Notes: generated by a model from the letters alone, not told the origin. Positions 58,698 through 63,349 are shown, counted from the stretch's first letter. The stretch: 64,000 nucleotides of DNA from Parcubacteria group bacterium (GCA_016186325.1 JACPLW010000010.1:22856-86855); one strand, 5' to 3'. Program-made: numbers and translations.

Positions 58698-60628
<1,931 letters not shown>

Positions 60629-60713
60629 CCCCGCTAAGATAGATTTGACATCATTAAATCTGTTTGTTATGATAGTATCAAAGGCCCGAGGGCTTTTTAA
60701 AAATACCTAATTT

Positions 60714-60908
60714 ATGGGCTATTTAGAAAAAACAAAAACATATTTTAAAGAAGTTAGGGTTGAAATGAACAAGGTCAATTGGCCGACGAAGACTGAAACC
60801 ATTAACTATACCTTAGTGGTTATTGGCGTTTCGGTTGCAGTCGCGGCTTATCTTGGCTCTCTGGATTTTATTTTTACTTCTGTTTTGAACTTTTTCTTAT
60901 TTAAGTAA
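60714..60908 (+). CDS. secE: Preprotein translocase subunit SecE
   Basis: 64 aa with a single C-terminal TM, directly upstream of nusG. Confidence 0.7.
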   Translation: MGYLEKTKTYFKEVRVEMNKVNWPTKTETINYTLVVIGVSVAVAAYLGSLDFIFTSVLNFFLFK

Positions 60909-60929
60909 TGCGGGCATTTTTAGAAAAAT

Positions 60930-61472
60930 ATGGCAAAACAACAAGCACAAGGCAGAAACTGGTATGTTCTTCATACTTACTCCGGTTATGAAGACGCCGT
61001 GGCGCGCAATTTGAAGCAGAGAATTGAATCCCTGGACATGCAGGATAAAATTTTTAATGTTTTGGTGCCCAAGGAAAAAAAGATTAAAATCAAAAACGGC
61101 AAACGACGCGTCACTGAAGAAAAAATTTATCCGGGCTATGTGATTGTAGAAATGATTGTTACCGACGATTCCTGGTATGTAGTAAGAAACACGCCTCGGG
61201 TAACCGGGTTTATCGGATCGGGGACAACGCCAATTGCGATTTCAAAAGAAGAAATGCTGGAGCTTCAAAAGCGGATGGGATCGACTGAATCAAAATATAA
61301 AATTGAATTTTCTATCGGCGACCCGGTGAAAATCGTTGACGGGCCGTTTAAAGATTTTGACGGCAAAGTGAGCGATATTGACGAAGAGCGGGGCAAGGTT
61401 AAAGTTATGATCTCGATGTTCGGCCGCGAAACAGCGGTGGAGCTTGACTCGCTGCAGATTAAAAAATTATAA
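60930..61472 (+). CDS. nusG: Transcription termination/antitermination factor NusG
   Basis: NGN domain WYVLHTYSGYE and the KOW motif GDPVKIVDGPFKDFDGKV. Confidence 0.85.
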   Translation: MAKQQAQGRNWYVLHTYSGYEDAVARNLKQRIESLDMQDKIFNVLVPKEKKIKIKNGKRRVTEEKIYPGYVIVEMIVTDDSWYVVRNTPRVTGFIGSGTTPIAISKEEMLELQKRMGSTESKYKIEFSIGDPVKIVDGPFKDFDGKVSDIDEERGKVKVMISMFGRETAVELDSLQIKKL

Positions 61473-61523
61473 AAGGTGGGCTACCCCGCAGTTGCGGGGT
61501 GCTCATAAATTTTAGCTAAATTT

Positions 61524-61949
61524 ATGGCAAAGAAAATTAAAACAATTATAAAAATACAAATTCCGGCTGGAGCGGCAACACCGGCTCCGCCGGTAGGCAC
61601 GGCTTTGGGTCCGCAAGGCATTAATATAGGAGAATTTGTCAGTAAGTTCAACGCGGCTACTAAAGAAATGGCCGGAGATATTATTCCCGTTGAGTTAACC
61701 GTCTACGAAGATCGGACTTACGATATGAAATTTAAAACTTCGCCTGCGGCGGCACTGCTTAAAAAAGCCGCGGGTATTGAGAAGGGAAGTAGCAATCCGA
61801 AAAAAGACAAGGTTGGCAAAGTAACAATGGCGCAAATTCGCGAAATCGCCGAAAAGAAACTGGTTGATTTGAATGCCAATAATATTGAAGCCGCGGAAAA
61901 AATCATAATGGGCACCGCTCGGTCCATGGGAATTGAAGTTGTAAAATAA
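61524..61949 (+). CDS. rplK: 50S ribosomal protein L11
   Basis: [27 protein letters not shown]. Confidence 0.9.
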
Positions 61950-61961
61950 AAAATAGCATTA

Positions 61962-61982
61962 CTTGGTGACGCCGTCACCAAG
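61962..61982. repeat. REP-like perfect palindrome cttggtgacgccgtcaccaag (copy 1, 3' flank of the RAYT gene)
   Basis: 21-nt palindrome. Further copies at 62179-62199, 62446-62466 and 62666-62686. Confidence 0.7.
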
Positions 61983-62001
61983 TGGGTACATCTGACAATC
62001 A

Positions 62002-62700
62002 TTAGCTCTCCACTAAAAGATGTTCCATATCTTTTCTTTCGAGCATTATCTTTAAGGCATCTTCCGCGAAATCTTTATATTCCGCGATGGTTTTAAATTG
62101 TGAAATGATAATTTCTTTACCGCAAAGTTCTCTTCCATTTTTATCTTTTTTCTTCTTCATATACTCCTCCCAACTCGACTTGGAGACGCCGTCACCAAGT
62201 CGATGGACACGATTATTAAGATTCACATATGCGCTTACGTTCAGAAGATATTCGTTGGAGTCAACATGAACTGCTTTAAATGGACCTTGGAATAAAGAAC
62301 CGGAACGCTGACATTTTACATTGAAATATCTAGCATACCCAAGACATAATCTATGCATAAATTTTTCTATTCCTTTATCGGCGATTTGTCTCATTAAGAA
62401 GTGGTAATGATTTGGATTGAGGCAATAGCATACAAATTCCACTAACTTGGTGACGCCGTCACCAAGTTGAGATTCGCGCTTCCTAAATGAATTTTCAAAT
62501 ATACTTCCTATCGGTTCAACGGTATTGAACTCCTCCATACTTTGCAAGAATCTGGCATAATCTCGTGCGTCCATGAAAATTTGGCGTTTATCCACGCCTC
62601 GGCCGAAAATATGATAATACTCATCATTTACTAGTAATACTTTTCTCATACATCTTATTATACCACTTGGTGACGCCGTCACCAAGTATTTTTTCACCAT
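62002..62700 (-). CDS. REP-associated tyrosine transposase (RAYT; IS200-like Y1 HuH transposase) that carries three copies of its REP palindrome in-frame
   Basis: HuH motif NPNHYHFLM and a catalytic-Tyr region YVNLNNRVH (YxxxNP-like). The segments KYLVTASPSG, QLGDGVTKLV and RLGDGVSKSS are encoded by the palindrome copies. Confidence 0.6.
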   Translation of the reverse strand: MVKKYLVTASPSGIIRCMRKVLLVNDEYYHIFGRGVDKRQIFMDARDYARFLQSMEEFNTVEPIGSIFENSFRKRESQLGDGVTKLVEFVCYCLNPNHYHFLMRQIADKGIEKFMHRLCLGYARYFNVKCQRSGSLFQGPFKAVHVDSNEYLLNVSAYVNLNNRVHRLGDGVSKSSWEEYMKKKKDKNGRELCGKEIIISQFKTIAEYKDFAEDALKIMLERKDMEHLLVES

Positions 62701-62797
62701 AAATTTCTAACGGGGTCAATATTGTTTTTAAAAAATATCTAAGTTAGAGTTTAAAAACTTTATTGATCTTTTAAAATTTAAAAAAGAGGAACTCCAA

Positions 62798-63349
62798 GTG
62801 AACGCTAGACCGCCGAGATTAACTGTTGATGAATATTTTGATTTGATCGCTTTAATTTTTGCTTGCCGCGGCACTTGCGATCGTTTGCGGACCGCGACCG
62901 TTATAAGAGATAATGATAATATTTTAATTGCTGGCGGGTATAACGGCGCAATATCTGGGTTGCCTCATTGCGATGACATTGGCCATCTTATTGTTGAAAA
63001 TCACTGCATAAGAACTAATCATGGCGAAGAAAACGCGCTCTTAAATTGTATTGATTTATCTCGGATTGAAAATGGCGTGGCTACTATTATCGGTAATCCA
63101 TGTTTCCCGTGCGCGCGAAAAGTATTAAGCAAAGATATTAAAAGATTGCGATACATCGGAACATACGATAATTCTTTAGGGTTTGAACACGTTAAAGAAT
63201 TGTGCGAACAAAAAAGCGTTGTTATAGAGTTTATTGATATTAGAGATGTTTTGGAAACTCTCCAAAAGGCCATTTATTTTCTTCAGGGACCCGGCGGTCC
63301 ATTCCGTAATATGGAAAAAATTATGTTAAAATTGGAAGAGAAAGAGTAA
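62798..63349 (+). CDS. CMP/dCMP deaminase zinc-binding family protein
   Basis: HGEENAL (H[AC]E-type) and PCFPCARK (PCxxC) zinc-ligand motifs. Confidence 0.6.
   Translation: MNARPPRLTVDEYFDLIALIFACRGTCDRLRTATVIRDNDNILIAGGYNGAISGLPHCDDIGHLIVENHCIRTNHGEENALLNCIDLSRIENGVATIIGNPCFPCARKVLSKDIKRLRYIGTYDNSLGFEHVKELCEQKSVVIEFIDIRDVLETLQKAIYFLQGPGGPFRNMEKIMLKLEEKE

Follow-up and report, generated by a model that had tools for sequence, protein, structure and literature searches.

The window (the 64-kb stretch of Parcubacteria DNA that was analyzed) carries secE, nusG, and rplK along its plus strand, then a transposase gene on the opposite strand, and next a dCMP-deaminase-like gene. Up to the transposase gene, this is the gene order that the original prediction had described. 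rplK encodes ribosomal protein L11 (61524..61949, plus strand) and is the convergent neighbor of the transposase gene; it is context, outside of the element discussed here. We searched the 64 kb for rplA, rplJ, and rplL with the E. coli proteins as queries and detected none of them; rplK was found with E = 9e-30. However, the proposal that the transposase took the place of rplA does not hold. A large subgroup of Parcubacteria, OD1-L1, has been described as having lost L1, and none of 80 loci that are homologous to the transposase locus has rplK, rplA, rplJ, or rplL nearby. Because L1 loss is known in Parcubacteria and 0 of the 80 loci are near rplK, we conclude that the transposase did not replace rplA and that the missing rplA is probably a lineage trait that is unrelated to the transposase. 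For annotation, the lesson is that a missing rplA should not be attributed to an insertion.

The transposase gene (62002..62649, minus strand) encodes 215 amino acids plus a stop codon. The minus-strand frame is open across 62002-62700, and we called the start by homology at the ATG at 62649-62647 instead of at 62700: homologs begin with MRK at the position of this ATG in 25 of 25 cases, and then in 106 of 106 aligned sequences. The protein matches the Pfam model for Y1 transposases (PF01797, Y1_Tnp) with 28.6-28.8 bits, above the gathering cut-off of 23 bits, which confirms the predicted identity of the ORF; 26 of 26 aligned members of the family also score above the cut-off. The HuH motif (H81-Y-H83, at 62401-62409 on the minus strand) and the catalytic tyrosine (Tyr141, at 62227-62229 on the minus strand) are both invariant in the alignment: N80-H81-Y82-H83 and Y141 are the same in all 107 sequences, with NHYHF as the context of the former. 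The tyrosine motif is Y141-V-N-L-N145-N (YVNLNN), in which N145 is invariant and is followed by N, not P.

An AlphaFold model from the 107-sequence alignment had a pLDDT of 86 and a pTM of 0.84, and the best Foldseek match to this model was 4ER8 (E 3.8e-5, TM 0.63 relative to the target), which is a RAYT (REP-associated tyrosine transposase) from E. coli bound to a REP hairpin. The next fold matches were the TnpA structures of IS608 and ISDra2. A sequence-profile search of the PDB with the transposase returned no entry, and fold comparison alone worked. The original label of a RAYT-type transposase is thus apt in that the protein is Y1/HUH and its closest solved fold is the RAYT 4ER8, but the NCBIfam RAYT equivalog model (NF047646) gives the protein just 18.2 bits, as compared to a cut-off of 80. 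The 55-residue tail at the C terminus has no detectable match to a helix-turn-helix (HTH).

Four copies of a 23-nt palindrome, ACTTGGTGAC-GSC-GTCACCAAGT, lie within 61961-62687. On the plus strand, ACTTGGTGAC-GCC-GTCACCAAGT is found at 61961-61983, 62445-62467, and 62665-62687, and the fourth copy (62178-62200) has 1 mismatch. The unit has arms of 10-11 nt around a 3-nt or 1-nt center, and its outer half-sites, ACTTGG and CCAAGT, are conserved. Four perfect palindromes of 21 nt had been reported; the four copies are real, but the unit is 23 nt long and the copy at 62178 is imperfect. As single-stranded DNA, all four are expected to fold into a hairpin with a stem of 10-13 bp (dG of -9.6 to -11.4 kcal/mol, z of -4.4 to -6.3).

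In the direction of the gene, the first copy is the 5' hairpin, or putative left end (62665..62687), which spans the spacer and the -35 region of the predicted transposase promoter. The second, which we call site 2 (62445..62467), is in frame and encodes LGDGVTK (residues 62-68), and site 3 (62178..62200) is in frame and encodes LGDGVSK (residues 151-157). Both heptapeptides are in coil segments of the AlphaFold model, the first ahead of the HuH strand and the second directly after the helix with the catalytic tyrosine. The 3' hairpin, or putative right end (61961..61983), lies 18 nt beyond the stop codon of the transposase and 12 nt beyond that of rplK; on the minus strand, a T-rich tail comes next, so that it resembles a terminator. 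Because the true start is the ATG at 62649, there are two in-frame copies and not three. In other words, the original placement was correct for the 3' flank, but one of the copies that had been assigned to the ORF falls in the promoter, and the peptide LVTASPSG that it was said to encode comes from an upstream extension of the ORF that the predicted promoter would not transcribe.

The window holds 0 further copies of the 23-mer with up to 3 mismatches (shuffled sequences are expected to have 0) and 0 further matches to the generic pattern ACTTRG-N11-CYAAGT (0.32 expected in shuffles). A scan of metagenomes for the exact hairpin of the window gave matches at its own locus only, with no solo copy. 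The gene does carry its own flanking hairpin in frame, as was proposed, but a reading of the copies as REPs in the usual sense is not supported, as they are not dispersed in the window and do not have a GT[AG]G foot. CRISPR-like repeats and integron attC-like sites were ruled out on the spacing, the perfect symmetry, and the associated enzyme. A search of 60600-63000 against Rfam identified no family, with a chance match to SL1 that was well below the threshold.

Directly after the 5' hairpin, related loci share the consensus G-(G/A)-TAtAAT (72 loci), and it is this conservation over 72 loci that is the basis for calling a promoter. A TAnnnT hexamer is present in 62 of the 72 loci; 47 of these 62 have a TG before the hexamer, and 45 of the 62 have an ATG 6-10 nt downstream. 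In the window, the predicted extended -10 box is TGGTATAAT (62657..62665, minus strand), with the T still belonging to the hairpin as its final base; the box is followed by 7 nt and then the ATG. A -35-like sequence, TTGGTG (62685-62680, minus strand), is part of the hairpin's left arm and is 17 bp upstream of the -10 box. A simple promoter scan missed the transposase promoter because the -35 box matches at only 3 of 6 positions; the same scan did flag both terminal hairpins as terminator-like. The distance of 6-10 nt from the -10 box to the ATG, in the window and in related loci, implies a leaderless mRNA with leaderless translation, and many of the L1-lacking Parcubacteria have been noted to be without an anti-Shine-Dalgarno motif. 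The 5' hairpin is in the classical operator position of this predicted promoter, and because it is upstream of the conserved -10 box, it should not be transcribed. A second lesson for annotation is that start codon calls in this family are often misplaced upstream, so that the ORF runs through the promoter hairpin.

The transposase has 3179 relatives in the database, of about 210-220 amino acids, with 490 matches in species-representative genomes. The best 80 of the 490 are nearly all labeled as metagenome-assembled genomes of Patescibacteria or Parcubacteria, and the few other taxon labels among these 80 are probably mislabeled bins. Several genomes have 2-3 divergent copies of the gene. The family was absent from a phage collection, and a plasmid collection contained only relatives that were 23-29% identical. 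The best 80 loci contain 252 hairpins within the 89.6 kb that the genes and their flanks make up, as compared to 33 in 1022 kb elsewhere, which is an enrichment of roughly 87-fold. The hairpins peak at four positions relative to the ATG (-50 to -25, 175-200, 425-475, and 625-700). Among 84 genes, these sites are occupied in 72, 51, 57, and 66 cases, from 5' to 3', and 32 of the 84 have all four. Both heptapeptides are at the same columns of the protein alignment, and nearly every relative to a limit of about 55% identity shares these positions of the in-frame sites. Across these genomes, the four-hairpin layout thus emerges as a property of the family.

The variable residues of the heptapeptides pair up as codon complementarity would have it (D/V, N/V, H/V, S/A, R/A, and C/A, with G paired with S, T, or P), and members with a decayed hairpin keep the seven codons while their sequence drifts. 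Reading LGxxVSK as a repeated functional peptide motif, with the palindromic DNA as incidental, would account for its conservation in position and, in part, in sequence (L, G, S/T, K), but the same 23-mer occurs in the non-coding flanks and the decayed members keep seven unrelated residues, so the non-coding copies and the codon-complementary covariation refute this reading.

More distant paralogs, at 29-44% identity, lack site 3 and have a classical "...YPWSS" motif in its place. In several of them, the 5' flank, site 2, and the 3' flank are still filled, but by a different hairpin, and GTAGG-footed hairpins are among those found (L050_451, L067_6417, L033_8785, and a fragment in L076; L numbers denote loci). 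Because several of these distant paralogs carry site 2 and they are without site 3, site 2 appears to be older. The habit of embedding a cognate hairpin is, judging from these paralogs, broader than the ACTTGG subfamily.

Away from the transposase genes, relatives have 33 solo hairpins per 1.02 Mb, or about 1 per 31 kb, and a solo hairpin is usually of the same type as that of the neighboring gene. Most are outside of long ORFs, and in intergenic DNA they are found in either orientation. Some solo copies lie within very long stop-free ORFs of 2.9-8.6 kb (L039 7657, L030 4217, L034 9837, L076 2288, L050 19965, and L059 19080); all three reading frames are represented, and two Moranbacteria genomes share one of the copies at an identical site. 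Such copies may have been inserted in frame into genes of the host. We also observed two intergenic arrays of three hairpins (L029 7378-7470 and L067 3912-4027), which have the same outer type, three inner stems, and spacings of 11-35 nt; the arrays are reminiscent of BIME-like clusters in which REPs of different families are combined.

Could a genome-wide REP family have recently placed copies in a RAYT gene that had arrived where rplA would be? In-frame insertions of REPs are documented for the tnpA_REP genes of subclass 2.4, and the solo hairpins in relatives, some of them inside long ORFs, are of the same kind. However, the in-frame sites of our family keep their alignment positions in essentially all relatives that are at least about 55% identical, and site 2 is also filled in the 29-44% identical paralogs, by different hairpins. 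There is no other copy in the 64 kb, and in the metagenome scan the exact hairpin was at its own locus only. In addition, L1 loss is lineage-wide and the family is unlinked to rplK. We consider this explanation to be largely refuted and very unlikely. More generally, both in-frame sites are fixed positions across the protein family, which does not support the idea that the palindromes are a set of insertions into the window's gene.

We used site 3 to quantify covariation. The alignment was anchored on the protein codons instead of on the hairpin, and members with decayed hairpins were included. We found that 83.1% of cells were paired, as compared to 70.9% in shuffles (0 of 500 shuffles reached the observed value), and that there were 148 cells with two-sided changes, as compared to 56 in shuffles. 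When the register was slid as a control, just 23-46% of cells were paired. The copies within a gene also resemble each other: the inner stem (four base pairs) is shared by 224 of 290 within-gene pairs of hairpins (77%), but by just 7% of pairs between genes. The loops of these 224 matching pairs are identical in 124 cases, exact reverse complements in 87, and neither of these in 13. In four genes (L005, L024, L052, and L066), the copies differ from each other, and each is still self-complementary. These comparisons show that each copy is kept self-complementary through compensatory changes and that the copies within a gene are homogenized at the level of DNA, with flipping of loops. Because the copies are alike within a gene and the loops flip, homogenization acts on DNA in either orientation, with the whole 23-mer being copied or inverted. 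Furthermore, the palindrome is centered on a codon, and therefore a flip changes the middle residue only.

The palindromes might instead be RNA stem-loops in the transposase mRNA, such as RNase III sites, translation pauses, or stability elements. Two of the copies are transcribed within the ORF and the 3' copy is terminator-like, which would fit. However, the 5' copy is upstream of the -10 box and hence outside of the predicted transcript, and among imperfect copies, A.C mismatches (44) are as common as G.T (40), so there is no bias toward RNA wobble. The 87 within-gene pairs with reverse-complement loops point to inversion or copying of DNA and would not be expected if RNA were under selection, and intergenic solo copies are found in both orientations. 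We view the RNA explanation as improbable. Instead, the equal numbers of A.C and G.T mismatches, the loops that are identical or reverse-complementary, and the untranscribed 5' copy indicate that selection acts on DNA.

The palindromes might also be duplex operators that are bound by a symmetric dimer (of the C-terminal tail or of a host regulator), with no extrusion of hairpins. The perfect two-fold symmetry with conserved half-sites (ACTTGG/CCAAGT) is what such an operator would have, the 5' copy is exactly between -35 and -10, and related proteins from subclass 2.1 have HTH-like C-terminal tails. On the other hand, the copies that differ within a gene but are each self-complementary (in L005, L024, L052, and L066) fit better with pairing or with arm-to-arm templating than with the recognition of one fixed duplex sequence. 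Hairpin arms are sometimes 15-26 nt long and reach into unique flanking sequence, up to 24-26 nt, and this too fits better with pairing or templating. Also, the tail of our protein is without an HTH match, and the solved relatives bind hairpins of single-stranded DNA. Of the alternatives to a hairpin substrate, duplex operators are the one that we take most seriously, and we still think that it is unlikely.

Several other features of the hairpins are worth recording. Half-hairpin scars beside full hairpins are found in 10 of 285 cases, as compared to 4 in control windows, which is too few for an argument about the position of cleavage. Short tandem duplications of one arm lie beside some hairpins, in L046, L060, L070, L075, and L003, and again just 10 of 285 hairpins show this. 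Terminal hairpins are fused or doubled into palindromes of 36-45 nt in L045 and L060 (relative positions -54 and +647), in L008 (+643), and in L023 (+652). Mosaic exchange of segments A, B, and C was undetectable because per-segment identities are saturated (about 60-68%).

Comparisons between genomes indicate where the unit ends. L002 and L003 are 90.6% identical at the DNA level from -38 to +672, and homology also runs from hairpin to hairpin in L005/L017, L014/L021, and L026/L067. Other ranges of homology between genomes are -41 to 635, -45 to 654, and -22 to 699. For L042/L046 and L045/L060, homology begins or ends at one of the terminal hairpins. These alignments show the two terminal hairpins as the limits of a unit that is common to different genomes. 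The terminal hairpins coincide with breakpoints of synteny between genomes.

In a relative, L085, a region of 3.4 kb is collinear with the window and 77% identical to it. Precisely at 62686, the identity goes up from 65-72% to 92-98%, and past 61965 it drops to 71-75%. Relative to L085, dS is 0.43 for the transposase, as compared to 1.17 for rplK, 1.96 for nusG, and 1.66 for the deaminase, and the dN/dS of the transposase is 0.12, which indicates purifying selection. The transposase gene is syntenic in both L085 and L088. Because of the step in identity at the hairpins and the lower dS, the element looks younger than its flanks even though it is at the same site, but constraint on synonymous sites could explain part of the low dS. 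Within a genome, no paralogs exceed 80% identity in their DNA. We looked for an empty site or an excision junction by lookup of the exact rplK protein, among the nearest transposase homologs, and in the metagenome scan, and found only occupied loci.

One locus has a piece of the element on its own. In L076 (13736-13950, minus strand), an isolated N-terminal fragment consists of a hairpin, segment A, and a hairpin, and it ends exactly at site 2. Its two hairpins are copies of another, GTAG-footed type, TGTAGGACGT-nnn-ACGTCCTACA, with flipped loops. In a separate case, an rve-type (DDE) integrase gene breaks the same transposase gene of a close relative, L086 (772-1729, 90% nucleotide identity), at about 380 nt into the gene, and this break is not at a hairpin.

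We propose that the window's gene belongs to a Patescibacteria-specific family of Y1 transposases that act on single-stranded DNA, that this family is related to RAYT/TnpA_REP and to the TnpA of IS200, and that its members have four cognate hairpins at fixed sites, two of which fall in surface loops of the protein. By analogy with the solved relatives, we infer that the transposase would bind the single-stranded hairpins and would probably cut and rejoin them. The terminal copies would be the left and right ends. The 5' copy might also be an operator, by which the protein would shut off its own leaderless transcript, and the 3' copy might also be a terminator. For the two internal copies, the role that we suggest is purely conjectural: they may be tolerated because they encode heptapeptides in loops, and they may persist by being re-templated from the other copies, which would keep the enzyme and its substrate physically linked. 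We consider the proposal, including this mechanism, to be probable, with substantial room for doubt.

A stronger version of this proposal is that the hairpins are active recombination sites of the HUH enzyme, so that the element would be a self-contained replicator with its substrate in its own reading frame and would undergo exchange of cassettes from hairpin to hairpin. If so, then cutting and rejoining at any pair of hairpins would homogenize and flip the copies. An incoming element would replace the resident at the same locus without a scar, which would explain the step in identity at both terminal hairpins, and sub-segments that are bounded by hairpins, such as the L076 fragment, would be released. 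Such a mechanism of cassette exchange would be undescribed for Y1 transposases. We offer it as a speculative possibility, with the odds against it.

Among known systems, the REPtrons (such as E. coli yafM, 4ER8) share the Y1/HUH fold, are the best structural match, and have their own hairpin flanking the gene. As in the REPtrons, co-resident paralogs each have their own type of hairpin, paralogs within a genome have low identity, the gene is under purifying selection, and the window's gene is syntenic in a relative. Unlike in REPtrons, the foot of the hairpin is ACTTGG, with no GT[AG]G in the window's subfamily, and the hairpin is not dispersed in the window, with solo copies at just about 1 per 31 kb in relatives. 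The score for NF047646 is far below the cut-off, and the tyrosine motif is YVNLNN instead of the Y---NP of class 2. Also, our family has two fixed in-frame copies and a promoter that is embedded in the 5' copy.

In-frame insertion of REPs was reported for the tnpA_REP proteins of subclass 2.4 (Quentin et al. 2018, PMC6006769). As in our family, those cognate hairpins are in the ORF and leave the frame intact, they affect a peripheral part of the protein, and there are symmetric "double-foot" hairpins. In contrast, our family has two sites of seven codons, before HuH and after Y, which are outside of the interval from HuH to Y. The layout is family-wide in Patescibacteria, and the protein subclass, the phylum, and the hairpin are all different (the motifs are NHYH, FQ, and YVNLNN), so the protein falls outside of subclass 2.4. 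The overlap with the promoter, the quantified concerted evolution, and the flipping of loops further set our family apart. The motifs agree best with subclass 2.1/TIRYT (Bertels group 1): NH[YF]H, FQ, a Y[IV]HLNP-like motif, SS, and a C-terminal tail. However, subclass 2.1 was reported (Quentin et al. 2018, PMC6006769) to have a tail that is HTH-like and no associated REP-like hairpins, while our family has four hairpins and the tail of the window's protein has no detectable HTH match.

Minimal elements of the IS200/IS605 group, such as IS200 (subclass 1.1), are also about 0.7 kb, with a single Y1 gene, bounding hairpins, and end hairpins that overlap expression signals. Unlike our family, with NHYH and YVNLNN, IS200 has DH[VI]H and Y---Q. 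We found no set of near-identical copies (the closest pair within a genome is 80% identical at the DNA level), and our hairpins are perfect, symmetric, identical at both ends, and also inside the ORF.

In Rickettsia, palindromic elements persist in frame at permissive loops and are dispersed over many genes. The solo hairpins in long ORFs of relatives resemble these elements, and in-frame REPs in unrelated genes as well, but the copies that define our family occupy set positions in the gene of the enzyme itself. In the library that was searched, no relevant paper connects RAYT or IS200 with Patescibacteria or CPR. In-frame REPs in tnpA_REP genes were already known; what is new is that the layout of four hairpins is a property of the family.

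RAYT and REP are a leading example of co-evolution between an enzyme and its substrate, and how the pair is linked and matched is still debated. Here, a single gene has four candidate substrate copies at fixed sites, two of them in frame, and records compensatory change, homogenization, and inversion of loops. This makes it possible to test the question of co-evolution directly, on about 0.7 kb of DNA and a protein of 215 amino acids. And the family in question is an abundant one in Patescibacteria that has been annotated only as "transposase."

Two features elsewhere in the window also deserve mention. gyrB (58698-60628) is represented by two ORFs (99 and 543 amino acids) that overlap at CTGTAATG (58993-59000), and one missing base would restore the frame; this is either a real frameshift or an error in the assembly. 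Finally, a GC-rich stem, GGGCTACCCCGCAGTTGCGGGGTGCTC, which has no match in Rfam, lies between nusG and rplK (61476-61510).
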